A stretch of 36,473 nucleotides of DNA from a virus (Duplodnaviria > Caudoviricetes): positions 1 through 36,473 of the IMG/VR virus record IMGVR_UViG_3300012346_000047; one strand, written 5' to 3'. The translations under genes were made by a program, and so were the position numbers. The notes under the pieces are model-generated. The model was not told where the DNA came from. It worked only from the letters and a program-made list of their open reading frames with translations, and made no database searches. Positions 1 through 36,462 of the stretch are shown here, piece by piece. The first letter of the stretch is position 1. Each line of letters starts with the position of its first letter.

Positions 1-348
1 AAGTGGGGCTGAAACGGTTTTGCGTGTGGGGTCGTTTGACTTTTTCACCGCCCCTCCCTCCGAGAATTTTTCATCCTCTTCAGGCCATCCATCCAAACCA
101 ATTTTTGGTTTTGGTTTGTACCCAAGATCGTCTAGCGTCTTTGTGTGATGACACTCTTTGCACAGCATCTGAAGATTGCCATCATCGTTTGTGCCGCCCT
201 TTGAGACTGGCACGATGTGGTCTAGTTCTTCAGCAAGCCGGACAATCCCTTTGGCTTTGCATGACAAGCATAGCGGAGATTCCATCATCTTCAGACGACG
301 AGTCTGTTGGAGCCGCCAACCAGTTAACCGATTATTGCTCTTAGAGAT
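1..348 (-). CDS. Packaging-associated HNH endonuclease (HK97 gp74-like); runs off the left edge; absent from the ORF track
   Basis: Manual translation: ...PLCLSCKAKGIVRLAEELDHIVPVSKGGTNDDGNLQMLCKECHHTKT...IGLDGWP; CxxC, DHIVP, GG, N, CxxCH pattern. The start is either ATC at 348 (GGAGG at 356-360) or ATG at 288. Confidence 0.9.
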   Translation of the reverse strand, partial: MSKSNNRLTGWRLQQTRRLKMMESPLCLSCKAKGIVRLAEELDHIVPVSKGGTNDDGNLQMLCKECHHTKTLDDLGYKPKPKIGLDGWPEEDEKFSEGGAVKKSNDPTRKTVSAPL

Positions 349-405
349 GATTAAACCTCCGCAAAGATAGTGGTCAACTTATGCGTATTCGCGCTTGACG
401 GTTGC

Positions 406-435
406 ATTCTATGCCACATCCAAATAACTTTGCAA
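406..435 (-). promoter_or_regulatory. Putative late promoter (pR'-like)
   Basis: TTGCAA-18 nt-TAGAAT overlapping the end of the Q-like gene and pointing into HNH and, on a circular map, the terminase/structural genes. Confidence 0.55.
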
Positions 436-780
436 CTGTTTTCTGCCATTACTAACAAAATCTTTCAATGTTTGTAAGTTAACTTTAAGGATTTTGCAAA
501 CCTTCGTAGGAGATGTGTTCTCCACATAGAACCATTTGAGGGCTATGCGGTTAACTGGGCTTAGGTTGCGCATGGCCTTCTCCAGTAGCTCGGCATCAGG
601 CAGGTCGATAGAAAAGCTGTTGGAGTTGCTGTTCCATACTTCAGTTGGACGATACCAACGAAACATTGGATGGACAGAGCCGTAGCCGCGCTTTGGGCGA
701 ACATACATAGCCCAATTCTTCAGTCTGCGATCTATCTTCTGTTCGCCATCTTGCAGGGCGAAGAAGTCAACATAATCCAT
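409..780 (-). CDS. Q-like antiterminator / late gene regulator
   Basis: N-terminal RLKNWA motif and C-terminal sigma-region-4-like HTH (LSPVNRIALKWFYVENTSPTKVCKILKVN); last gene before the late promoter. Confidence 0.7.
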   Translation of the reverse strand: MDYVDFFALQDGEQKIDRRLKNWAMYVRPKRGYGSVHPMFRWYRPTEVWNSNSNSFSIDLPDAELLEKAMRNLSPVNRIALKWFYVENTSPTKVCKILKVNLQTLKDFVSNGRKQLQSYLDVA

Positions 781-787
781 CTTAAGC

Positions 788-1585
788 CTATTGTTTCCAA
801 TGGTTAGCGAAAGCCTTGAGCGGGTAAAAGACTAAGGAGTTCCTGTATCCGCCTTCTATTGTGGGATGGATTGGTGTCACTCCATGCACATTACGCCACG
901 CAGGATACACCAACATTGAGTTATCCCTGCTGTCAACTGTTGCGTCATAGTCAGGTACGGTCGTATTGCCGCCTCTTGCGTTCTTTTTCTTGGCGATGAT
1001 CACATTGACACAGCCTTCAAGATTGGCGGCATCGCGGTGGAATGGCGCGGAGATATTGAAATTGCTAATGCTTGATGTGAACAGTTCACCAAAGCGGAAC
1101 TCAGGCGGCACTTCCTTCTCAATGATTTGCTTCTGCTGTGCATAAAGTTCAGGGGAAATATCCTGTATAAGCTTCTCTGATTCTTTGCAGAGCAAGAGCA
1201 TGGCCTTGACGAATGTATTGGCAGATTTGACCTGATGTACGCTAGAGATCGAGGGATACGGCCGCTTCATATGTGGCTTTGGTGGTATTGACCCGAGGAT
1301 TGTGCTGTACTGGCGAATCACCTGATACTGGTTCTTGCCGTTGGCATCCTGTCCCATTGGCTTCTTCCTGTCCATAAATGACTTTGGCACTCTGTCAGAT
1401 AGGAACTCGGCATTGGCAACATCCGCCAATTGTTTGATGCGGCCAGTCATCTCCTTGATGTAGAAGCCGATCACCTTGCCATCAGCCATGAAGATTGTGT
1501 CCTCTGTGACATTTGGCTCAATATCCCCGCATACATCCCCAATTTTCACGCTGTGTGCAATTTGCTTTAGCTCAACATAGTTCAT
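788..1585 (-). CDS. TET/JBP-family 2-oxoglutarate/Fe(II) 5-methylpyrimidine dioxygenase
   Basis: FTSSISNFN..H183-R-D185..N, GG, H234-GVTPI, R248-NSLVFY: the HxD...H...RxS triad with flanks typical of phage TET/JBP proteins. Confidence 0.88.
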   Translation of the reverse strand: MNYVELKQIAHSVKIGDVCGDIEPNVTEDTIFMADGKVIGFYIKEMTGRIKQLADVANAEFLSDRVPKSFMDRKKPMGQDANGKNQYQVIRQYSTILGSIPPKPHMKRPYPSISSVHQVKSANTFVKAMLLLCKESEKLIQDISPELYAQQKQIIEKEVPPEFRFGELFTSSISNFNISAPFHRDAANLEGCVNVIIAKKKNARGGNTTVPDYDATVDSRDNSMLVYPAWRNVHGVTPIHPTIEGGYRNSLVFYPLKAFANHWKQ

Positions 1586-2310
1586 AACTGTTCCTTCACA
1601 ACATTCTTCACCATTTGTATCTCTGTGTATTGGGATTTCCTGTTCGCATTTATAGAAAAAATATCAGGATACAGCTTGCACAGCATTAAAGATGCTTGGC
1701 GTTCTAGGCTTGCTCGGTCTGCTATGTCTTGCATCCCGCCTTGATTCTTGTAATTGTTTGTCAGGCAGGAAATGAAATTGAAACGCGCAATATTACCCAT
1801 GTATTTGTAATACTTAACGCTTCTTTCGTAATCTGTTTTTGTTTTCAGTTGGCACAAAACCCGATGATCTTTGGTCGATCGGAAGCCAAACAAGTTCGCC
1901 ACGATGTATGTCGCGCCAATGTCGATCGTCTTGCTCATGAAAAATTTGTTTGAGCTTGGATAGACACCGAAAGAATTGATTTTTTTATTGTTGCAGTAGT
2001 TGATGATGAAAGAGAACAGTTTTTGCAGATTCTTTGTCATCAGTGATTGGATTTGTTTTATGTCATCTTCAATGACAATGACAAAGACTCCAACATCGAA
2101 ATAATTTTGGATGTAATTGAATTTGTCAGTTGCGTTATCTGTTTCGCACAGCACTAGGTTGTAATCAGGGCAAACTTCCATGTACTTGGACATATCTTCC
2201 TCATCGCTGATGAACAAATAAATGTCTTTCTTGTCAAACTCTGTGAGTAAACTCAAAGTCAGTTTGTTGATCGTGTCTGATCGCCTATGCGTTGGTATTG
2301 CAATCTTCAT
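1582..2310 (-). CDS. TET-associated GT-A glycosyltransferase (TAGT / GREB1-C-like)
   Basis: MKIAIPTHRR start, VIVIEDD motif, KTDYERS, NQGGMQ; adjacent to TET. Start reassigned to ATG 2310 (ATGA overlap). Confidence 0.8.
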   Translation of the reverse strand: MKIAIPTHRRSDTINKLTLSLLTEFDKKDIYLFISDEEDMSKYMEVCPDYNLVLCETDNATDKFNYIQNYFDVGVFVIVIEDDIKQIQSLMTKNLQKLFSFIINYCNNKKINSFGVYPSSNKFFMSKTIDIGATYIVANLFGFRSTKDHRVLCQLKTKTDYERSVKYYKYMGNIARFNFISCLTNNYKNQGGMQDIADRASLERQASLMLCKLYPDIFSINANRKSQYTEIQMVKNVVKEQL

Positions 2311-3245
2311 ATCAAATCTGCCATGTTGTTTACGATAGAGATATATTTGGCGTTGTATTTGCAAACGCGCAAGCCTTCAGCGATTGCAAATTTGATTACA
2401 TCTTTGCCGTAGTGATCAGCGATCTTGGCGGCCTCTGCATAGTTACGCTCGTAGGCCAACAAACTAAAAAACGCTTTTCCCGCATCTGTCATGTAACTGC
2501 CGAACACGCCTTTGTAGTTCGGATCAATACAGAATATTTTGCTATCTTGGACAAGAATATTTGTTGTTGACAGATCGCCATGAAAGAAAGATGGTTGATG
2601 CTCTTCTAAAGACGCAACAATTCTCTTCACATCTTGCGTTTCATACTCAATTGTTGGAATATTTCGCGTATAGGAATCAAATAGCGAATTTTCAATTGAT
2701 TTATTCTTGTATGACTCAATCAAATCAATGATCTGATGCGCTGTAGGCTTCTGATGGCCGTTTATTCGCTCAAGAATGATCATTTCATCGTTGCAGAACA
2801 ATATTTTTGGCGTCTGAACAATATTTTCAGACATCTTGTACCAACGAAATTCAAGTTCTGCGTTTTTTGTGTGCTTGATAACTGTGCTGTCTGTGAAAAT
2901 CAGTTTATTGCGTGTGAATGGACTCAGAATGCTTGAAAAATCAGCATCTTGGCTCACAGTCATGTCATCAATGTAAATTGCTCCGTATTCTTTGTTGAAA
3001 GAAATGCAATCGTGCGGTACAGCATGGATGTTTAGCCAAGTTTGAATATCTTTGTGATATTTTTCAATCTTTTGTTTCTCTGTCAGGCCAAAGCGCGAGC
3101 CACGCGCTGTAACAATTTTGATTGTTGGATTTATTGTGCTTTTCAAATCCTGCAATCGTTTGATCAGCGCAAGATTTGGCACTCTGTCCATGATGCGGCT
3201 GTGTCCGATTGCCAATGTTCCATCAAAATCAACAACAACGATCAT
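2307..3245 (-). CDS. Fusion of HAD phosphatase (capsule-biosynthesis type) and APH/choline-kinase-like phosphotransferase
   Basis: N-half: VVDFDGTL, VTARG, K, YIDD (HAD motifs). C-half: HGDLSTTNIL..IDPN (kinase catalytic loop and metal site). Confidence 0.85.
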   Translation of the reverse strand: MIVVVDFDGTLAIGHSRIMDRVPNLALIKRLQDLKSTINPTIKIVTARGSRFGLTEKQKIEKYHKDIQTWLNIHAVPHDCISFNKEYGAIYIDDMTVSQDADFSSILSPFTRNKLIFTDSTVIKHTKNAELEFRWYKMSENIVQTPKILFCNDEMIILERINGHQKPTAHQIIDLIESYKNKSIENSLFDSYTRNIPTIEYETQDVKRIVASLEEHQPSFFHGDLSTTNILVQDSKIFCIDPNYKGVFGSYMTDAGKAFFSLLAYERNYAEAAKIADHYGKDVIKFAIAEGLRVCKYNAKYISIVNNMADLI

Positions 3246-3763
3246 AGAGCCTCAAAATAATCTTCCACATCACCTAATTTGATGAATGTGTTTTCTTGGA
3301 TAACTTTCGCCCCAATCATTCCAGATGCCAAGCTGTTGTCATCTTTCATTGAGTCCAATAAAGCCGCCATTGATTTGACAAAATATATGCCACTACATTT
3401 GTCTTTGGATATGCTATTTTTCTCATCAACGGCCATCAAGCGGCCATCTTCAATCAAAATTGAGCCGTATTTTGGTTTGTCGCTTCTGAAATAAAACAAA
3501 GTATCTTCTTCAAAATTCAGATTCGGCACTCCAAATGGAATGATGTCGCAATCAACAATTAAACAATCTTTTTCATTGGCAATTTCGGCAAGCGTTTCTC
3601 TTCTGCTGTTCGTTTTTTTGTCGCCTAGCAAGTTCGCATACGGAAAAATGCTGAATATATGTTGAATGATGCGTTTGTCTTTGTAATAAATAAATTGTTT
3701 ATCAACAGGACTGATGTTTTTCATCCTTGTCCCTGATCCGCCAATCGTTACAAAAACTTTCAT
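3242..3763 (-). CDS. Sugar-phosphate nucleotidyltransferase (NTP_transferase family)
   Basis: GGSGTRM..SPVDKQ signature, IVDCD, EK, SGIYF, LGDVED. Start reassigned to ATG 3763 (ATGA overlap). Confidence 0.85.
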   Translation of the reverse strand: MKVFVTIGGSGTRMKNISPVDKQFIYYKDKRIIQHIFSIFPYANLLGDKKTNSRRETLAEIANEKDCLIVDCDIIPFGVPNLNFEEDTLFYFRSDKPKYGSILIEDGRLMAVDEKNSISKDKCSGIYFVKSMAALLDSMKDDNSLASGMIGAKVIQENTFIKLGDVEDYFEAL

Positions 3764-4365
3764 ACTTTGGATTTTTGTTTCCGCAGGAAATCCAAGATCA
3801 TGTAGCCAATATAAGCGTTCTGTCCGCGCCAATATTTAACTAATTCTTGCGCCTCTTCGTAGTGTTCAGGCTCAAATTCAATCTGAATGGCTTTTTTCAC
3901 GCCATCAGCCATGTCTTGAATTTTCTCGTCAACATCCTCGTCATCTAGGACAGAATAATCAATTGCGCTTTTGACCAGTTCAGATTCATCAAAACCGAGC
4001 AATTCAATTTCAAAATCACAATTTTTCAATTCCTCAATTTCCAAACCGAGGATATCCATGTCCCATCCCGCGTTCAGGGCAAGTTTGTTGTCAGCAATGA
4101 CATAAGCCTTCTTCTGCGTTGCTGTGAGATGGGAAATCTCAATTGTTGGCACAGTATCCAATTTGAGCAAACGAGCCGCCATCACACGGCCATGCCCTGC
4201 CAAGATGCCATTCTCACCATCCAAGAGGACAGGATTGGTGAAACCAAACTCCCTGATACTTGCGGCCAATTGCGCGACTTGTGACTCGGAGTGTGTGCGG
4301 CTGTTCAGAGCGTATGGAATAAGCTCCTCAGTCGCCTTATATTTGATTGCCAATTTATTTGTCAT
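3760..4365 (-). CDS. ParB/sulfiredoxin N-terminal domain protein without a methyltransferase domain
   Basis: LIPYALNSRTHS..SIREFGFTNPVL..AGHGRVMAA..YVIADNKLA..WD; short acidic/helical tail. Confidence 0.9.
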   Translation of the reverse strand: MTNKLAIKYKATEELIPYALNSRTHSESQVAQLAASIREFGFTNPVLLDGENGILAGHGRVMAARLLKLDTVPTIEISHLTATQKKAYVIADNKLALNAGWDMDILGLEIEELKNCDFEIELLGFDESELVKSAIDYSVLDDEDVDEKIQDMADGVKKAIQIEFEPEHYEEAQELVKYWRGQNAYIGYMILDFLRKQKSKV

Positions 4366-4389
4366 GTTCACCTTCAGATTAGATAAGGA

Positions 4390-11275: not shown

Positions 11276-11431
11276 TTATACGAACCACTCAGGTTTCAAA
11301 GCACGAAGTTGAAAGACCCGCATCTTTGGCACATCCTCTCCCCACATTGAGATCGCGGGTTGCGAAATGCCAAGTAGCAAGGCTAACTCTTTTATGCTTC
11401 CTGCCAGTTTTATAGCATCAATTTTTTTCAT
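11276..11431 (-). CDS. cro: Cro-like HTH regulator (51 aa; not in track)
   Basis: MKKIDAIKLAGSIKELALLLGISQPAISMWGEDVPKMRVFQLRALKPEWFV; first gene of the leftward arm. Confidence 0.85.
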   Translation of the reverse strand: MKKIDAIKLAGSIKELALLLGISQPAISMWGEDVPKMRVFQLRALKPEWFV

Positions 11432-11634
11432 AAACGCCATTATAAGCAAGTTTAGCTCACAAAAATAAGAGGAAACCCTTAGGTGACAGCTGTGAAGTGT
11501 GCCAAAAAAACAACGAAACTACAAAAAAATAAGGAAATTTATCAATTTTTTGAGAAATAAATAATTTATCTATTTTTTGAAGCAAAATTCATTCATGCCG
11601 CAAACATCAAGCGGTCTTTTAAAAGGAAATCAAA
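11432..11634. promoter_or_regulatory. Divergent early control region
   Basis: AT-rich, between divergent operons; TATAAT (minus) at 11439-11444; imperfect palindrome TAAGAGGAAACCCTTA at 11466-11481. Confidence 0.7.
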
Positions 11635-15495: not shown

Positions 15496-15794
15496 GCTAT
15501 GCAAAAACAGAAATGCTTGTAGTGCAATGGGGCGAGGCAAGGGGCATCGTGCAGAACAGCACAGCCTATGCGCAAGCATTGAAAACCAAAGAAGAATTAG
15601 AGGAGCTATTTGATGCAATAGCCAAAGACGACAAGGCGGCCATCAAAGATGCCTATGGTGACATCCTTGTAACGCTCATCATGGGATGCGCCTGTGCCGA
15701 CCTTGATCTAGTTACTTGCCTAGAAGGGGCATACAACGAGATCAAAGATCGCAAGGGTTTTTTGAATAAAGACGGAATATTTGTTAAGCAGTAA
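15492..15794 (+). CDS. MazG-like NTP pyrophosphohydrolase
   Basis: KTKEELEEL..KDAYGDILVTL..AYNEIKDRKG. Confidence 0.85.
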   Translation: MSYAKTEMLVVQWGEARGIVQNSTAYAQALKTKEELEELFDAIAKDDKAAIKDAYGDILVTLIMGCACADLDLVTCLEGAYNEIKDRKGFLNKDGIFVKQ

Positions 15795-16398
15795 GCACTT
15801 CAAGGGCGTGTGCGATATGCTTCTTGCGATCCTCTAAGCCAATCGTGCCGCCATTGATTCTCTTTGTCAGCATCAGCCAATCTTCTTTGTCTGCGTACTG
15901 ATTCAAATTGTGCGTTTGCCAAAACCATCCCGCTGTGAGCGATGCATATTTTGGCGTTCTGACCAAATCCGGATTGCGCACAAAGTCCTCGCCTAGTGCT
16001 TTTCCTGCGTGGAAAAAATTTGCCGCACCAGTTAACTGAAGATAACCCGATCCTCTGTACAAAAATCCATCGCCTGAAGCCTCATCCCTGTTGCCCATGC
16101 GATTACCATAGATGCGATTGGCAATCTTTACAGGTTGACGCTCGTACTGTGCCGCAGACTCAGGCGTGAAACCCCATGCTCTCTTTGCTGTCAGCGGGAA
16201 CAGCTTGAGTAATGTGGCCGCACGATAGTTCAGATTCTCCTCAAGGACTCTGAAGTTGTTGCACTCATGGCCGCATTGTCCGAGCCAAGCCGCCTGTTGT
16301 ACTGGCGACAAGATGCCGAAGCGTTCAAATGTTTCGTTGAATGGGTCTGCCAATGATGGCTCAATTTTCAATTGGCGTAATTGTTCAGGGCTTACCAT
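15784..16398 (-). CDS. GH19 chitinase-like endolysin
   Basis: QCGHEC..EENLNY..YRGSGYLQLTG..AGWFW..TKRINGG. Confidence 0.92.
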   Translation of the reverse strand: MVSPEQLRQLKIEPSLADPFNETFERFGILSPVQQAAWLGQCGHECNNFRVLEENLNYRAATLLKLFPLTAKRAWGFTPESAAQYERQPVKIANRIYGNRMGNRDEASGDGFLYRGSGYLQLTGAANFFHAGKALGEDFVRNPDLVRTPKYASLTAGWFWQTHNLNQYADKEDWLMLTKRINGGTIGLEDRKKHIAHALEVLTA

Positions 16399-16885
16399 TT
16401 AAAAGAGTCCTCACTTCGTTGTATGCGTCAATACAGGCGTTCAGTTGTACTGTATTCCTATCGCCCTGCGCAATTATTTCTGCGATGGCGGCAAGGGTTT
16501 CTCGCTCGGCATTAGAAGCTGAGTCAGCCTGTCCGTCAGGTTTGCTTCCTGTTTCTTTGCTATCTGCGGTGGCAATGGCGGGACTTGCGGGGGCTTGCTG
16601 ACAACTTGCGGTTGGGAGGCGCACCCGACCAGAGCGAATAGCGCGATCAAGGGCAGACTGTTTTTGATTGATGACATTTGTTGACTCCTGAAGTTGCGTT
16701 GCAGTAGTGTTGATTTTTTCATTCAACTTTTGTTCTGTTGCCCTTGCTTCTTCGTTCTTCTTGGCAATGGCAATCTTCATGTCGTTGTCGCGTTCAATCC
16801 ATCCGTAATGATGGCCGACCTGATATGTTCCAAATAGGGAAATAATCACGCCAACAATTATCCAAGGCAAGGGAATTGGAAACAT
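16385..16885 (-). CDS. Rz: i-spanin (Rz-like)
   Basis: N-terminal TM followed by coiled coil, GRVRL motif and C-terminal Cys; adjacent to the endolysin. Confidence 0.8.
   Translation of the reverse strand: MFPIPLPWIIVGVIISLFGTYQVGHHYGWIERDNDMKIAIAKKNEEARATEQKLNEKINTTATQLQESTNVINQKQSALDRAIRSGRVRLPTASCQQAPASPAIATADSKETGSKPDGQADSASNAERETLAAIAEIIAQGDRNTVQLNACIDAYNEVRTLLNGKP
16474..16677 (-). CDS. Rz1: Embedded o-spanin (Rz1-like lipoprotein)
   Basis: Alternative frame inside Rz; lipobox LVGC then Pro-rich KPPQVPPLPP. Confidence 0.75.
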   Translation of the reverse strand: MSSIKNSLPLIALFALVGCASQPQVVSKPPQVPPLPPQIAKKQEANLTDRLTQLLMPSEKPLPPSQK

Positions 16886-17424
16886 CAGTCAGCCTCTGTT
16901 CGTGCGAGTGCGATTTGTTCCCTGTCTGCATCGGATTCTAAATGGTCAGGCGGGGTGTCAGGGGGCGGGGGCGGTGTCCAACTCTCATCCAGTTGCGGAT
17001 TGGTAAAGACAGGCATAGCTCCGAATGGCTGACTTGGCAACCCGCCATAGGCCGAGGGTGGATTGTATGGCTGTGTGTATGATTGGCCGTGTCCTGTGCT
17101 GTGTCCTTGATATGGCTGACACATCGGTTGCATCGTCTGCGGTGAAACAGGATTGCCGAGTGCCTTGGATGCCGCACCGACAGCGCGCTTGCTCATCACT
17201 CCACCAATTCCGCCAACGATCAGCAGAACAATGTCGTTCAGCATTTTGGTGTATGCCTGATCTATCGGAGCCATTGACTTGATCGGCTGTGTGACAAAGG
17301 TCACAGAATACAAAAGCGCAACAACAATGAAGCAAAGAATCAGCGTGACCGCAATGACCACGAAACCCCAAATCCTTACCTCAATCTCATCAGGGGTTAG
17401 GTTTAGTTTCGGACTGTTGGACAT
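16885..17424 (-). CDS. Two-TM holin-like protein with Pro-rich tail
   Basis: Two hydrophobic segments and a disordered P/Q/G-rich C-terminus; in the lysis cluster. Confidence 0.6.
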   Translation of the reverse strand: MSNSPKLNLTPDEIEVRIWGFVVIAVTLILCFIVVALLYSVTFVTQPIKSMAPIDQAYTKMLNDIVLLIVGGIGGVMSKRAVGAASKALGNPVSPQTMQPMCQPYQGHSTGHGQSYTQPYNPPSAYGGLPSQPFGAMPVFTNPQLDESWTPPPPPDTPPDHLESDADREQIALARTEAD

Positions 17425-17596
17425 CTGTTACTTTCTTTTCCAAGATTGGTGCGACTAAATATTCAGGGCATTGCTGTGTGAACAGGCACTTCGGTTTCTG
17501 ACATTCAGGCAAGATAAAGTTATCGGGGTTCTGACATGGATAGCGATACACATCTTTGCATCCAGTCAAAAGCAAGGCAAGCAATAAATATTTCAT
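17390..17596 (-). CDS. Cys-rich lipoprotein
   Basis: MKYLLLALLLTGC lipobox plus four more Cys. Confidence 0.75.
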   Translation of the reverse strand: MKYLLLALLLTGCKDVYRYPCQNPDNFILPECQKPKCLFTQQCPEYLVAPILEKKVTDVQQSETKPNP

Positions 17597-17769
17597 GCGT
17601 ACACATCCACAGAGTTAGGCTTGACCCATTGATTTTTAATGTTCTCTACTTTGTGCCTGTAATCAACTTGCAAATTTAATTTCTTCATTGCATCAAGATG
17701 TTGCTGATGCAAAACGCGCTGAGTTTCCTTCAGCATCTGAGCATTGCTTTGGTATGTTGATATTTTCAT
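17593..17769 (-). CDS. Hypothetical protein (58 aa; not in track)
   Basis: MKISTYQSNAQML..NSVDVYA; ATGA overlaps on both sides. Confidence 0.65.
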   Translation of the reverse strand: MKISTYQSNAQMLKETQRVLHQQHLDAMKKLNLQVDYRHKVENIKNQWVKPNSVDVYA

Positions 17770-17918
17770 CCTAGTCCCAAATAAGCTAGAAATTTATTAA
17801 CTATCTTGTCGGACAGATCATCAGGCAAGAATCGCAAGAAGCCAAGCACCCACCATGCAACACACATCCGAACGAATACTTTGAGGAATAGATCAAATTG
17901 TTTCTGATATTCATTCAT
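17766..17918 (-). CDS. Small membrane protein (50 aa; not in track)
   Basis: MNEYQKQFDLFLKVFVRMCVAWWVLGFLRFLPDDLSDKIVNKFLAYLGLG; ATGA overlaps. Confidence 0.65.
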   Translation of the reverse strand: MNEYQKQFDLFLKVFVRMCVAWWVLGFLRFLPDDLSDKIVNKFLAYLGLG

Positions 17919-28880: not shown

Positions 28881-29494
28881 TACGCGCCCATATTGATGCG
28901 GTGAGGCGTCATCAGATGAATCATGCCGTATGGGATTGGTGTAACTAAGTTACCAATATTGATGGCTTCGCGATTTTCATAAAGTTCACCAATGTACAAG
29001 AGCATGGCTTGCTTCAAGGCTTCAGGCATTGGGTAATCATTTGGACTTCCAACTGTGAATCCTGCGGCAAAGCGAACGATGACAGCATTTGGAATTTGTT
29101 TAGCTTGCGGCCAAATGGTCACAGGATAAATCTTCGCAGGATTGCTATATGAATCAAAGATGTATTGATTTGCATTGAGCGTCTGCGTTGTGCCGTTTGT
29201 GTCTGTGTATGTGATGCTTGTGATTGAATTGATTGGATATGTTCCCAACTCAATTTCGTTTGCAGGGAATTCATCAAGAGCCATGGCGTATGTTGTTGGT
29301 GCAACGGTCAACTCTGTGTATGCCTCAACTGCCTCACGCGCTGTCTTAATCAATGATGTGACTAGAGCATCGTCAGGATGGCTTGGCGGTGAGCCAACGG
29401 CATCAAGACGCAAATGCAAACGCGCTGTCGCCAATGTGATCGGCTCAGTCGTTACAACTGCTGTGCGCTTAATCTTCCGAACTAATTGAGTCAT
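28880..29494 (-). CDS. Head-tail connector (HK97 gp6 / phiE125 gp8-like)
   Basis: EPITLATARLHLRLD..DDALV..LKQAMLLYIGELYENRE. Confidence 0.9.
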   Translation of the reverse strand: MTQLVRKIKRTAVVTTEPITLATARLHLRLDAVGSPPSHPDDALVTSLIKTAREAVEAYTELTVAPTTYAMALDEFPANEIELGTYPINSITSITYTDTNGTTQTLNANQYIFDSYSNPAKIYPVTIWPQAKQIPNAVIVRFAAGFTVGSPNDYPMPEALKQAMLLYIGELYENREAINIGNLVTPIPYGMIHLMTPHRINMGA

Positions 29495-30188
29495 TTATTT
29501 TTCCCTCTGGCTTATAAACCAAAGCATCATCACCAATCCACGATTTCAAAATTCTACCGCCAACATCCTTAGTTCCACGGAAATTTTTTGAATGACCAAC
29601 GCCAATTCCTAACCTACCTTCAATCCCTTTGATGCCTATCACCCTTTGGCCGCTGAACAAATGATTATTGCTGTGAGCTTGCCATAGCGTGTGGTCAATA
29701 AATTGAATCGTATCTCTGCATACAGACTTGAATGTTTCCAAGGCTTGTCCGCGAATAGCAGTAGAACATAAACTGCTATGCAAGGTGTTTTCCATCTGCC
29801 TATAAGATTTCTGAGTCAGGTTGTAATAGCGAGCATTTGCTTCGCCAATCAATTCAGCTTTCTCAAATTTCTTATCTATCGTTTCTAGCCAATCAGCCGC
29901 GTACCAATCGTCATCCTCAATAAAGACAACACGCTCGTCACCGCTGATTACATTTATACCCGCACGAAGATTACGCGCTTGCGTATTCATGCCTTTTTGC
30001 CAGTATGGAGTAGGCCGGATAACTTCAAGAGTCCAATTGTTTTTGCTGAATGTGATTGGCTGTGCAATCTCACCATCATCAACAATAATCCAACGAACCT
30101 TTCCTCTGTATGTTTGCCTTGCCATCCACATCTCGCAGATAGCCCACGCCTTCGGTCTTGCGCCTGTTGCGGTCAAAAGGGTCAACAT
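29469..30188 (-). CDS. GT-A fold glycosyltransferase in the head module
   Basis: LLTATGARP..WIIVDDG..FIEDDDWY..D..LW. Confidence 0.8.
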   Translation of the reverse strand: MLTLLTATGARPKAWAICEMWMARQTYRGKVRWIIVDDGEIAQPITFSKNNWTLEVIRPTPYWQKGMNTQARNLRAGINVISGDERVVFIEDDDWYAADWLETIDKKFEKAELIGEANARYYNLTQKSYRQMENTLHSSLCSTAIRGQALETFKSVCRDTIQFIDHTLWQAHSNNHLFSGQRVIGIKGIEGRLGIGVGHSKNFRGTKDVGGRILKSWIGDDALVYKPEGKINDSISSED

Positions 30189-30823
30189 ACTTTTATTGCT
30201 TCCTCAAGCGTCATACGCTCAAAGCAAGTCAGGGCTGTTTCCCTGCTCGCGTTAATCACTCTGACTCCCTCAGCTTGCAAATCAACTGCAAGTTGCGGGA
30301 ATTTGGCTTGCCACATTTTGAATGGCTGACTCGCTGTCAATCCTGCGCCATGTTGTCCAAACCAATGCGCCTCGCCTTTCGGAGAAGCTGTGCAATCCAA
30401 TCCTAGCAGAACAATTGTCTTTGCACCCCATAGGTATGCAAGATTGATTGCCTGATAGCCGCTGTTGCCACCTTGATGGATTACGCCATCAACTCCGAGT
30501 CCTGCTTTGTTTTCAGAACCGATGCGGTTGATTTTGAACCTCGTGGCCGCCCTCTCGTCTTGCGTCCAACACTCGCCTCTGTAATCTGCGCTGACTCGCT
30601 CGTAGTGGACATTCCACCATTGTTCATCACAGGCATAGAGGCAATCTGCAAATGGCGCTCTGCGATAGCTGTCATTGACAGCAATGGTCGCCCATCCTTG
30701 GTCTCCAACGAGGTTGCAATCTTCCTCGGTGAGACTCGGTCCGCTTGCAACAATACAGGCGACACGCCCTGCCCAACGACCTGCGGAACGGTCAAAGAGC
30801 CTCTTTGTGCGGTCGCCACTCTG
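30182..30823 (-). CDS. Start-less glycosyltransferase-like domain (DUF115/MAF/sialyltransferase-like), probably translated by -1 frameshift from the upstream gene
   Basis: Frame open 30862-30182 with no ATG/GTG/TTG until 30400. It reads WAGRVACIVASGPSL..IAVNDSY..ADCLYACDEQWW..GGNSGYQAINLAYLWGAKTIVLLGLDC..HWFGQH..VINASRETALTCF. Confidence 0.8.
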   Translation of the reverse strand, partial: QSGDRTKRLFDRSAGRWAGRVACIVASGPSLTEEDCNLVGDQGWATIAVNDSYRRAPFADCLYACDEQWWNVHYERVSADYRGECWTQDERAATRFKINRIGSENKAGLGVDGVIHQGGNSGYQAINLAYLWGAKTIVLLGLDCTASPKGEAHWFGQHGAGLTASQPFKMWQAKFPQLAVDLQAEGVRVINASRETALTCFERMTLEEAIKVC

Positions 30824-32234: not shown

Positions 32235-33257
32235 TTAAAGAGTCCGAGATGATTTTAGATTCTCAGCGATCATTCGCTGAAGCTCACTTGGCAATTTCAC
32301 TTCCTCGGACTCACTCCGAGAGAACAAACGCTTCGCACGACTTGCCGTAGCCGTAGCGAGCGACTTCGAGAAACCTCCTGCCTCACGCAAGAAGTCCTCA
32401 AAATCCTTGATGCTTTCAATTTGGTCAAGCGATGTCTTGACGCTTGTCAAGTCAACGCGAGCCATATCGTCTGCCGGAAATGTAACGACTGACACTTCTG
32501 ACAAGTCGCTGATGTTTTTGATGACGCGCACAGTCTGACCATTGATCTCAGAGAATTCAATGTCGCTCTGCTTCAGCATATAGCCAATGCTCAAGCCATC
32601 AATTGTTTCGTGTTGCATGGCCGCTTTGACAATGGCCGCCTCAGGGTTGCCATTGGTCAACTCGCCCTCGATGTATAAGCCTTTTTCATCCTCATACATC
32701 TTAGTCCATTTGCCGATTGGCACTTCCCAAGATTTGTGATTGACGAACATTTTTGGCATACGAGCCGAACCATTCATGATGGACTCAATCACGGACTTGT
32801 ATGCACCCGCCATGATCGTGTCGTTATAGCTGTCAATGCCACCAAAGGTTGAAGCGTATCCGCCAAACTTGCCGCTTGATGCGTCTGCAAATTTGAGGCT
32901 CACGCTGTTTAATGAAAGTTGCTTTCTTGCAATCATCTTACTCTCCGAGTCTTGTATCTTAGCCCATTCACGGTCTGCCCATGTCTTGCCTGAGTCACCG
33001 CCCCACAAAGCCCAAGCGATGCGACCATTACTGGGGTAGCCTTCTTCACCCTGACGGAAACCTTCCGCCTGTTTGTCAACTTCATGTCTTGCGAAAAAAG
33101 AAACCATGCGGCCAATTGTTTCGTCAGACAAATCCACCTTGTTCACAATGTCACGCGCCCTTGCGATGCCGACCTCTGTGCCGCCACGACCGAACTCGCT
33201 ACGCCAATCGAGGCCACGCTGTGCCTCATCGACCATTGCATTATTGGGGATTGGCAT
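32235..33257 (-). CDS. HK97-type prohead protease with an extra N-terminal domain
   Basis: FGGYASTF..DSYND..MFVNH..PIGKW..GLSIGY..EVSVVTFPA; about 107 additional N-terminal residues. Confidence 0.92.
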   Translation of the reverse strand: MPIPNNAMVDEAQRGLDWRSEFGRGGTEVGIARARDIVNKVDLSDETIGRMVSFFARHEVDKQAEGFRQGEEGYPSNGRIAWALWGGDSGKTWADREWAKIQDSESKMIARKQLSLNSVSLKFADASSGKFGGYASTFGGIDSYNDTIMAGAYKSVIESIMNGSARMPKMFVNHKSWEVPIGKWTKMYEDEKGLYIEGELTNGNPEAAIVKAAMQHETIDGLSIGYMLKQSDIEFSEINGQTVRVIKNISDLSEVSVVTFPADDMARVDLTSVKTSLDQIESIKDFEDFLREAGGFSKSLATATASRAKRLFSRSESEEVKLPSELQRMIAENLKSSRTL

Positions 33258-34474: not shown

Positions 34475-36007
34475 TTAGTGTTTCATTACAAGTGGTGCAT
34501 CTAAGAATCCGTCTAGATCGCCTTCAGTTTGTTTAGACATTCCGGCTACTCCAACCGCCATCGCTAGGGCGACTGCTCCATCAATGCGACCAGTTGCTTT
34601 CGCCTTATTTAATTTCCGATTTCCTGCGGCATCTTTTTCAACTCTAGCATTTGCCATGCACATAGTCAGAACTGGATTACCGCCATGAGCCATCTGCTCA
34701 TTCAAAAGTATTGTCTCAAGCGAATCAATCGCAGGAGCCATATCCTTGAAGCCCTGTCCGAATGGGACTAAGGGTAACACAAAGCCAAGCTCATCGATTT
34801 CCTTCTTCAACAAATCGAATCGCCACCTGTCAAACGCAACGGCCACGACATTGCAGTCTGTAAGTATTTCTACTATCTCCCGCGCAACCATCTCATAGTC
34901 AATGGATGCCCCGATAGTTGTTCTGATGTAGCCCTGCGATTCCCATACATCGTATGGTGCGCGATCTTTCCTCGCTCTGTCTTTCAGCCCCTTCTCAGGC
35001 GTCCAGAAGATTGGCTTGATGTGCCACTTGTCGCGCCACGCAATCAGAACCATGCTTGTCAGGTCGGTCTTGCCAGATAGGTCAAGGCCTACATAGACAG
35101 GCTCTTCATAAAAAACCGACTCGTCAGGCTCAGAACTATTGAGAATCCAAACGCCTTTGCTTACGAATGGGGCAACCATCTCAACTCGCTGATTCAACAC
35201 GAGGTTGCGAAAAGTCGGTTCAAAGCTCGGCATCCGCTTGGCTCTTGCGGCTTGCTCAATCACATCGTCCATGCTTCGGAAAGTTCCCAACGCGGGATTC
35301 GCTTTCTTCCACTCGGCAGGGTCTTCTAAATCACAATCCTTTGCCGCCTCATAAAGATGGCAAACAATGTTCTTGTCATCACTTGTCTTAGCGTCATCCA
35401 ACCAAATGCTAAACAAGTCGTTGTCGTTTGGGGCTTGCGTTGAGATTGCCAACAAGAGCGGGGCATCATGCGCACCTTGGCTCGTTGTGATCGCATCAAC
35501 GAAATCGCTGTTCGGACCTCTGACCTGACCTAGCTCATCAAGGATGGCCAAGATTGGCGACAGCCCATGCGCTGTCTTGCCCTCTGCGCTGATCGCCCTG
35601 TACTCCGTATTCATTGGCAAGCCGCACAGCTTCTTTGAGCTTGGCACTTCGCGCACAATGACGCGGAGCTTTGGCGACATAGCCACTATCTTTGATGCTA
35701 GGTCATAAACGATTGCCGCCTGTTCACGGCTCATCGCCCCACTGATAATCTGACTGTTCTTTTTTGCTTCAGGACCAACAAGGTGAGCAAGCAAAATACA
35801 GGCGATCAAAGCTGTCTTGCCATTCTTGCGGCCGATGCTCAGATAGCCGCGTCTTGTCGTGTGCGGGTTGTCATACACCTCAAGAATAAATTTCTTTTGA
35901 AAGTCATCAAGTTGAAAATCCACCCCGACAGATTTTCCACTTGGCACTTTGCAGTAGTGTTCAATGAAGGCAATCACCCTCTCACCGCGTGTCATTGGCT
36001 TGGTCAT
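34475..36007 (-). CDS. terL: Terminase large subunit
   Basis: Walker A GRKNGKT, Walker B AILDE, ISTQ, nuclease VGLDLS..DL, IDGAVAL. Confidence 0.97.
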   Translation of the reverse strand: MTKPMTRGERVIAFIEHYCKVPSGKSVGVDFQLDDFQKKFILEVYDNPHTTRRGYLSIGRKNGKTALIACILLAHLVGPEAKKNSQIISGAMSREQAAIVYDLASKIVAMSPKLRVIVREVPSSKKLCGLPMNTEYRAISAEGKTAHGLSPILAILDELGQVRGPNSDFVDAITTSQGAHDAPLLLAISTQAPNDNDLFSIWLDDAKTSDDKNIVCHLYEAAKDCDLEDPAEWKKANPALGTFRSMDDVIEQAARAKRMPSFEPTFRNLVLNQRVEMVAPFVSKGVWILNSSEPDESVFYEEPVYVGLDLSGKTDLTSMVLIAWRDKWHIKPIFWTPEKGLKDRARKDRAPYDVWESQGYIRTTIGASIDYEMVAREIVEILTDCNVVAVAFDRWRFDLLKKEIDELGFVLPLVPFGQGFKDMAPAIDSLETILLNEQMAHGGNPVLTMCMANARVEKDAAGNRKLNKAKATGRIDGAVALAMAVGVAGMSKQTEGDLDGFLDAPLVMKH

Positions 36008-36462
36008 CTTGCAATCAGATCGTCAAAGGAATTAATTGTGCGAGCAATTTTATTCTGCTCTGCACCCTGACCATTCAAAGTTCGCGGGTCTTGGCTTGTT
36101 TGATTCAGGCTAAGGCTTCTTATGATGGCAAGCTGTTGCCGCTGTAACGAATCAATGATGCTGATCAGAGGATTTGGGATCGGTGTGCCGCGATCATTCT
36201 TAACAATGATGCCCATGCGGTCTAGAGATTTCTGATGCTTGCGGATGTCTGCCTCAAGTCGGACAGCCTTTGCAACTAAGAGCAGATCAAAGTCACGCCA
36301 CCCATCGTGTGCGCGCGCGCGCGTGAACTGCCCCCAAATTATAATCTCATCTTCGTTTCTGAGTTCAACACCTTCTGGAAGCGGGGTCTTGTCAGACAGT
36401 TCGCTAACCAGTTGAACGACCTTTTCGATGCTGTTTAACCCTGCGGATTGGCCTTTTGACAA
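36004..36462 (-). CDS. terS: Terminase small subunit; true start may lie beyond the right edge
   Basis: GIIVKNDRGTPIPNPL..LSL motif; ATGA overlap with terL; frame stays open to the window end. Confidence 0.85.
   Translation of the reverse strand: MSKGQSAGLNSIEKVVQLVSELSDKTPLPEGVELRNEDEIIIWGQFTRARAHDGWRDFDLLLVAKAVRLEADIRKHQKSLDRMGIIVKNDRGTPIPNPLISIIDSLQRQQLAIIRSLSLNQTSQDPRTLNGQGAEQNKIARTINSFDDLIAR

Follow-up and report, generated by a model that had tools for sequence, protein, structure and literature searches.

Phage 5mYOX enzymes oxidise thymine in DNA to 5-hydroxymethyluracil (5hmU), and one subclass of them needs a ParB protein (O'Toole et al. PNAS 2026, PMC13229309; statements on published work here and below refer to the accessible portions of the papers). 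In the same study, a cytosine C5-methyltransferase (C5-MT) occurred in only 6% of the mined pathways, the proven thymine dioxygenases oxidised 5-methylcytosine (5mC) comparably in vitro, 5mYOX176 required its C-terminal tail, and the product from several of the tested clade C1 pairs in E. coli was slight or absent. TET89 had been described as a thymine dioxygenase without a C5-MT, and TET40, which the O'Toole tree places in clade D (PMC13229309), yielded 0.93% 5-hydroxymethylcytosine (5hmC) with a foreign C5-MT; the residues that select thymine over 5mC were called unclear (Burke et al. 2021, PMC8256090). Action on thymine was also inferred from gene context by Lee et al. (PMC8989533) and Pyle et al. 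(bioRxiv 10.1101/2023.12.21.572611).

In contig 53 of Pyle et al., which also has a C5-MT and a 5mYOX, the addition of one or two heptoses to 5hmC requires three components, namely a fusion of HAD and APH, a cytidylyltransferase and a glycosyltransferase of the GT-B type. In phages RB69, DLP3 and HY126, UDP-arabinofuranose is produced by the joint action of a kinase, a HAD of EcbF type and a nucleotidyltransferase (AfhE, AfhF; Lee et al. NAR 2026, PMC13326640), and the sugar-bearing thymines of SP-15, YerA41 and Carin-5 use different linker chemistry (PMC12686479). Our literature search, outside which most subscription papers and several supplements fell, found no report of a phage sugar on post-replicatively made 5hmU and no assay of MED4-184-like or actinophage enzymes.

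Since thymine-oxidising phage enzymes have been published (O'Toole 2026, Burke 2021), the main idea of the initial annotation of the DNA described here, a TET/JBP enzyme without a methyltransferase that acts on thymine or on host-laid 5mC, was already known as a class. It presupposed that the characterised phage TET clusters require a linked C5-MT, which no longer holds, and a missing methyltransferase is itself ordinary for such phage pathways. Phage oxidation of thymine without a C5-MT is thus not new; the enzyme branch and a putative self-made sugar donor go beyond that reading, as do the ParB, which it left unmentioned, and the sugar module.

A five-gene cassette ahead of the packaging genes

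The window, the whole 36,473-base stretch analysed, is a lambdoid/HK97-type tailed phage genome with the order small terminase (36462), head, tail, lysis, recombination, nin-like genes and HNH. The earlier impression of a near-complete genome was borne out by a CheckV completeness of 99% and by comparison of the junction with a closed relative, G001 (direct terminal repeats, 100% complete, dioxygenase 89% identical), which places the window ends ~24 bp apart on the circle. Only about 24 bp are missing, too little for a gene, so there is no room there for a methyltransferase in unassembled sequence, the finding named beforehand as one that would overturn the initial annotation. A scan of the 66 ORFs against Pfam and PHROGs gave no integrase or CI-like repressor; a Cro-like gene (11276-11449) faces the recombination genes. 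The prohead protease (32235-33257, minus strand) has an extra ~100 N-terminal residues that match an unknown family, phrog_2859 (E 1e-26).

Five minus-strand genes, encoding ParB, a nucleotidyltransferase, a HAD-kinase, a TAGT and the dioxygenase, are chained, each starting on the ATGA that ends the preceding gene. The first (3760-4371; GTG start at 4371 or ATG at 4365) encodes a ParB-like protein, a likely activator (Pfam ParB_N E 1.3e-4; PHROG 620 E 6e-53), with an N-terminal ParB domain, an acidic linker and a clade-specific C-terminal domain. The second (3242-3763) encodes a small nucleotidyltransferase of 173 aa (NTP_transf_3/IspD-like), a predicted maker of NDP-sugars. Alone it had no match in Pfam, nor in cultured phages by tblastn; it has weak NCBIfam IspD/G1P-cytidylyltransferase matches, its ESM Atlas neighbours are PF12804 at 0.96, and its relative in L106 matches PF12804 at E 6.5e-5. 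The third (2307-3245) is a fusion of an EcbF/BcbF-type HAD phosphatase (residues about 1-106; TIGR01689 E 2.4e-8; PDB 1XPJ by profile, E 1.2e-11) with an APH/RIO-like kinase (Bud32/APH matches; motif HGD at 222-224, D241), predicted to be a sugar-phosphate kinase/phosphatase. The fourth (1582-2310) encodes a TAGT-family GT-A glycosyltransferase of 242 aa, the predicted DNA 5hmU glycosyltransferase (Pfam TAGT, PF20691, 29.6 bits against a cut-off of 27.5). Phage DNA GT-As carry the motifs R..DDD..EDY/F (Pyle et al., bioRxiv 10.1101/2023.12.21.572611, Fig. 4 legend); those of the window enzyme are R..EDD..TDY, with TDY in place of EDY/F as the third.

Downstream lie a Sigma70-r4-like (Q-type) late regulator (409-780, minus strand; PF08281 E 6e-4), an HNH endonuclease (1-378, minus strand; PF01844 E 7.7e-13), whose frame runs off the window end, and then, across the junction with G001, the terminases, of which the small one (36004-36462, minus strand; PF05119 E 3.4e-5) comes directly after HNH on the circle. 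The Q-like gene is context outside the module and adjoins the TET gene only in the six closest loci.

The fifth gene (788-1585) encodes a predicted Fe(II)/2OG 5-methylpyrimidine dioxygenase of 265 aa. The TET/JBP assignment made earlier was confirmed by several approaches. The protein matches Pfam Tet_JBP (E 2.5e-8) at 33.7 bits, just below the cut-off of 34.9; a phmmer search with the single protein found no match in the PDB, whereas a profile of 85 relatives retrieved human TET2 (E 4e-9), CMD1 and NgTET1. In its AlphaFold2 model (pLDDT 97) the top Foldseek match is TET2 (E 7e-11, TM 0.69), and the best matches, TET2, CcTet, CMD1 and NgTET1, range from E 7e-11 to 2e-8, with other 2OG oxygenases at 1e-6 or above. 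The iron triad (H183, D185, H234; HxD...H) and the 2OG-binding R248 are invariant in alignment A1 and in 62/62 clade rows. The protein is a member of the TET/JBP (5mYOX) superfamily, in a clade with the enzyme of cyanophage MED4-184; its predicted activity is the oxidation of a 5-methylpyrimidine in DNA.

Public records (L069, from MED4-184, 15790-17914; L153; L154) label this family otherwise. The 'queuine tRNA-ribosyltransferase' label given to the dioxygenase (PHROG 6059, RefSeq) is a mis-annotation by the profile and fold matches, as is 'SNF2 repair protein' for the C1-like dioxygenases of T4-like phages. The 'DNA methylase' gene of MED4-184 is ParB-like (E 2e-50), and that genome has no PF00145.

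That the cassette is inactive or a relic is most improbable. Several of the assayed C1 pairs, as noted, made little or no product in E. coli (PMC13229309), but here none of the five frames is interrupted, the catalytic residues are conserved, and 3823 protein clusters match the dioxygenase. Related DNA occurs in aquatic and freshwater runs, and in 2 of the 4 runs examined single contigs span the whole cassette at ~95-96% identity.

Thymine or cytosine as the target

The initial annotation reported neither a C5-MT nor a thymidylate synthase, and this stands: none of the 66 window ORFs matches either family (Pfam, PHROGs), and six-frame searches of the window with PF00145 and PF00303, for which controls were positive in 9 and 10 of 14 genomes, returned nothing. 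Both are likewise absent from the complete relatives G001, G002, S-CBWM1 and MED4-184 (0/5 each, window included). The statement that C5-MT motifs are absent holds in the sense that they never occur together in one ORF; singly, short motifs occur by chance (ENV, for example, twice in the capsid ORF). ORF scans and a motif scan found no ThyX and no adenine methyltransferase.

The enzyme might instead oxidise 5mC laid down by host methyltransferases, or in some relatives by a distant phage C5-MT, with the sugar then carried on 5hmC. In the window, however, sites for host C5-MTs are scarce and fall short of expectation: there are 10 CCWGG sites on the two strands together (48 expected; 0.06% of C), 28 CCGG (122 expected) and 26 GGNCC (96 expected), and each common C5-MT target tested, GCGC and GCNGC included, covers <2% of C. 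Host 5mC would be a thin substrate, and that branch of the initial annotation is weak. Sites methylated by the host are, moreover, already protected, which also counts against it. Many palindromes are depleted (ACGT 0.12), suggesting continued restriction pressure and only partial modification.

We compared 68 viral loci of dioxygenase relatives (54-89% identity, among them many short ones and near-copies). In 55 of them ParB is no more than 2.5 kb away, and it is upstream in all 39 loci with >2.6 kb of upstream sequence. A C5-MT is never adjacent (0/68); it lies 4.1-7.8 kb away in 4/68, a point in favour of 5mC. Between ParB and the dioxygenase the genes are exchangeable, with GT-A (24 loci), ADDT (16), P-loop kinase (16), FkbM methyltransferase (15), GATase (14), the sugar module (6) or an unannotated family that is GT-B-like by eye (5). 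Loci with such further plug-ins include L021, L022, L058, with a sulfotransferase beside TAGT, and L066, with an FAD oxidoreductase and ADDT. In the nearest relatives apart from the near-copies (L006-L018, 70-74% identical), a P-loop kinase, a GATase and an amino acid:DNA transferase replace the sugar genes (Pfam ADDT E 2e-19, GATase_6 E 1e-7), and kinases and transferases of these types act on 5hmU DNA (Lee et al., PMC8989533). As a control, 71 loci were seeded with the enzyme of phage Melnitz (DNA polymerase - C5-MT - TET); C5-MT is adjacent in 64 of these (6 are cut upstream, 1 has it at a distance) and ParB is present in none. The cultured Methylophilales phage Melnitz itself (L148 4010-6194) has this 5mC-type layout, with its TET annotated as hypothetical. 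P-loop kinases also adjoin C5-MT-linked TETs, which leaves ADDT as the gene that is informative about thymine. The window clade spans cyanophage and other hosts with these interchangeable 5hmU-type tailoring genes, which again argues against 5mC.

Phylogeny was examined in a rapid 110-row tree and, more carefully, in one of 38 selected rows; C2, JBP and clade D lie outside this sampling. The label C1-like comes from visual comparison with Dataset S11 and from context, the assayed sequences themselves being outside the tree, and the Melnitz-type set was assigned to clades A/B by gene layout only. The window clade has support of 100/100 and a long stem branch (1.35 changes per column), with four actinophage enzymes as its sister (98/97); the C1-like and C5-MT-linked rows group together (100/99). 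The initial annotation had proposed a phylogeny against methyltransferase-linked phage TETs: the AU test rejects joining the clade to the C5-MT-linked set (p 0.005), but also to the 8 C1-like rows (p 0.003). Identity of the dioxygenase to C1-like loci is 22-27%.

The residues tell a similar story of separation. Position 188 is Asn in 62/62 clade rows, Asp in 7/8 C1-like and 15/15 C5-MT-linked rows; human TET2 also has Asn at the aligned site directly behind its HxD motif, which favours 5mC to some extent. Position 256 is Leu in 55/62 clade rows, Arg in 8/8 C1-like and Asp in 14/15 C5-MT-linked rows, and His in TET2 and NgTET1. Positions such as 188 and 256 we take, from TET structures, to line the base pocket. 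The tail after R248 has a median of 16 residues (11-29) in the clade against 36 (29-91) in the C1-like enzymes. Residue signatures gave no substrate assignment for the clade. The enzyme stands apart from the C1-like and the C5-MT-linked enzymes alike, with changed pocket residues and without the C-terminal tail, so we infer its substrate from gene context.

A changed pocket would also be explained if the clade oxidised another base, such as N6-methyladenine, the substrate of CcTet, or an unmethylated base. Positions 101, 188 and 256 differ from both reference groups, the stem branch is long, and CcTet is among the top fold matches; however, the Pfam and PHROGs scans of the 66 ORFs show no adenine methyltransferase, GATC is depleted (0.56), and C1-like enzymes are accompanied by the same tailoring families. 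We regard this reading as very unlikely. Oxidation of 5mC is a little less so but still quite unlikely, even with two published observations on its side, that thymine dioxygenases accept 5mC in vitro (PMC13229309) and that TET40 made 5hmC (PMC8256090), the latter from clade D, with which the window clade could be identical. By gene context, the target of the predicted enzyme is very probably thymine; that branch of the initial annotation is well supported by context and by published work, and is not new (Burke 2021, O'Toole 2026).

The ParB may be specific to this branch. Across relatives the N-terminal domain differs in subtype, in contrast to a strongly conserved, clade-specific stretch of ~60 residues at the C-terminus (alignment A3). 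The C-terminal domain is the best-conserved part of the protein in the clade, with 9 of 13 invariant columns at residues 136-194, and has no profile match to the C1-type domains (probability 0.35%). It would fit a clade-specific partner surface, and we lean towards a dioxygenase that depends on ParB.

Origin of the sugar donor

The HAD-kinase matches 240 protein clusters. Of 64 loci fetched, 63 were analysed (with duplicates across collections, and counts limited to the fetched flanks): 52 have the nucleotidyltransferase, 30 a TAGT and 28 a TET, and within those flanks none has a C5-MT or an arabinose-5-P isomerase. The TET partners of the module belong to the window clade, to an actinophage-like grade (L076, L096, L109) and to the C1-like group (L100, L106, L107, L128), the last four closely resembling, by eye, the proven thymine dioxygenases 5mYOX176/185. 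In cultured Synechococcus phage S-CBWM1, TET, TAGT, HAD, nucleotidyltransferase and kinase are consecutive. Phage DLP6 (L150 3376-6789) has a HAD, a 563-aa nucleotidyltransferase-kinase-like fusion and a C1-like dioxygenase in a row.

The other 35 of the 63 loci lack a TET and have the HAD-kinase with GT2, methyltransferases or NeuB, or beside portal and capsid genes (81 neighbours scanned). The module would thus be a sugar activator of general use that this cassette has recruited. In TET-less viral contigs (L108 5718-6719 and 9 similar loci), the nucleotidyltransferase/HAD-kinase pair has a volactin-like actin nearby (PF25216 E 6e-67).

These 35 loci bear on an alternative in which oxidation and glycosylation of thymine take place but with a donor that the TAGT draws from the host, for example UDP-glucose to give true base J, and the nucleotidyltransferase and HAD-kinase serve another glycan, such as one on the virion. 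It is also favoured by the 18 of 24 GT-A loci among the 68 relatives that have no sugar module, and by a second glycosyltransferase in the head region of the genome (GT2, 29469-30188). This GT2 (PF00535 E 9e-5) and a 72-aa ORF lie between the capsid and head-tail connector genes (29469-30400, minus strand), so that virion glycosylation is possible; the match of this ORF to a sialyltransferase-like PHROG family is confined to the final 68 positions of that family. Against a host donor, the cassette genes are chained by ATGA overlaps, and linkage of the module outlasts changes in gene order (L100, L109, S-CBWM1). Of the 38 GT-As from TET loci placed in a tree, 23 are module-linked, and 22 of these, from three dioxygenase groups, form one clade (support 0.926), a subfamily with its own motifs, with the S-CBWM1 enzyme just outside it and one unlinked glycosyltransferase between; the glycosyltransferase thus travels with the sugar genes. 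Finally, the analogous enzymes of contig 53 are required for its DNA product (Pyle et al.). We consider a host donor unlikely, and that the kinase, the phosphatase and nucleotidyl transfer, in this order, supply the TAGT donor is likely.

The cassette has sugar-activation genes of its own, so a sugar other than plain glucose is probable; the product anticipated earlier, base J-like, is otherwise plausible. Cellular-genome searches with the HAD-kinase and the dioxygenase each gave one short MAG contig, and no bacterial glycan cluster that would name the sugar. L187 and L188 have the layout of contig 53, and L187 was used as a stand-in for its sequence. The L187 fusion is a full-length homologue of the window HAD-kinase (27% over 309 aa, E 2.6e-26; profile E 4e-43), whereas the window nucleotidyltransferase matches the HIGH-type enzyme of L187 only at E 35; since it is not HIGH-type, the contig-53 sugar need not carry over. 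Matches of the window fusion to RB69 gp51/52 are weak (E 0.003 and 0.12), as is that of the nucleotidyltransferase to RB69 gp53 (E 9e-4). Arabinose, the first idea for the sugar, was lowered by the contig-53 precedent and the L187 homologue. By sequence the cassette is a mosaic of contig-53-like and arabinofuranose-like parts. For the sugar, a seven-carbon one is a tentative candidate and a pentofuranose such as arabinose a weaker one, while all other sugars taken together have a slightly larger share, itself short of an even chance.

Proposed pathway and comparison with known systems

In the pathway we propose, some of the thymines would be converted to 5hmU by the dioxygenase, with ParB probably assisting; a kinase step, then a phosphatase step, then nucleotidyl transfer would yield an NDP-sugar donor for the TAGT; and the TAGT would attach this phage-activated sugar to 5hmU, giving a base-J-like glycoside, probably with a sugar other than glucose. 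The modification may shield late DNA that is to be packaged from nucleases, a likely role given how closely the packaging genes follow the cassette. That the five genes form such a post-replicative pathway, from oxidised thymine to a glycoside made with a phage-activated sugar, we judge reasonably likely. A fuller claim is put forward with less than even confidence: a large third branch of phage thymine dioxygenases, with a rebuilt pocket and its own ParB partner domain, whose 5hmU would be capped by a phage-activated heptose or pentose as a base J analogue, and a module that would have moved among at least three dioxygenase lineages.

If true, the pathway would provide a new natural DNA base, a non-glucose analogue of base J, with its sugar-nucleotide route, and would place thymine oxidation in a branch remote from the assayed enzymes. 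The clade would also give a natural test of the residues that choose thymine over 5mC. The pathway is directly testable: five genes are within reach of the E. coli reassembly assay already published, and among cultured cyanophages MED4-184 has the clade enzyme and S-CBWM1 the sugar module.

Among the published systems, clade C1 (5mYOX176/ParB176, 185, 177; PMC13229309) shares with the window the TET/JBP fold, the lack of a C5-MT, a linked ParB without a DNA-binding domain, the tailoring menu (kinase, AADT, GATase, GT, O-methyltransferase) and the position near terminase. The C1 enzymes, however, have HxDxxD with Arg and a C-terminal extension, whereas the window enzyme has HxDxxN with Leu, no extension and a separate clade; the C1 ParB has nucleotide-binding and C-terminal dimerisation domains, and the window ParB has ParB_N and a conserved C-terminal domain that does not match the C1-type ones by profile. 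The accessible part of the C1 paper reports no glycosylated 5hmU product (PMC13229309). Clade C2 (5mYOX89-like) has no neighbouring ParB, in contrast to the window, and its motifs in Dataset S11 differ by eye. The 5mC dioxygenases of clades A/B adjoin a C5-MT (64/71, against 0/68 in the window clade), and the AU test separates them.

Contig 53 (Pyle et al.) has in common with the window a HAD-APH fusion and a nucleotidyltransferase that supply a DNA glycosyltransferase, but it has a C5-MT, a 5hmC acceptor, a GT-B and a HIGH-type transferase (in L187), where the window has no C5-MT, a GT-A TAGT and an NTP_transf_3-type enzyme. The UDP-arabinofuranose pathway likewise combines a kinase, an EcbF/1XPJ-type HAD and a sugar-1-P nucleotidyltransferase, and TIGR01689 is the best family for both RB69 gp51 and the window HAD. 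RB69, DLP3 and HY126 differ in a fused nucleotidyltransferase-kinase, an arabinose-5-P isomerase and a thymidylate-synthase-type hydroxylase that acts pre-replicatively on cytosine (PMC13326640); a host isomerase could replace the one missing here.

The actinobacteriophage ParB-TET cassettes (Nigel, Acadian, Cinna, Tonitrus) form the sister group, Acadian with a TAGT and Tonitrus with a kinase and ADDT. Predictions by Iyer and Aravind are reportedly linked to these cassettes. Cyanophage MED4-184 belongs to the same clade as the window (49% identical), with the order ParB-FkbM-TET-terminase. The kinetoplastid base J system (JBP1/2 and JGT) shares with the proposed pathway the post-replicative oxidation of thymine to 5hmU by a TET/JBP enzyme, followed by a GT-A. 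JGT uses UDP-glucose, and the base J system has no ParB or sugar-activation genes, unlike the window cassette. Phage GT-As resemble JGT in predicted structure (Pyle et al.).
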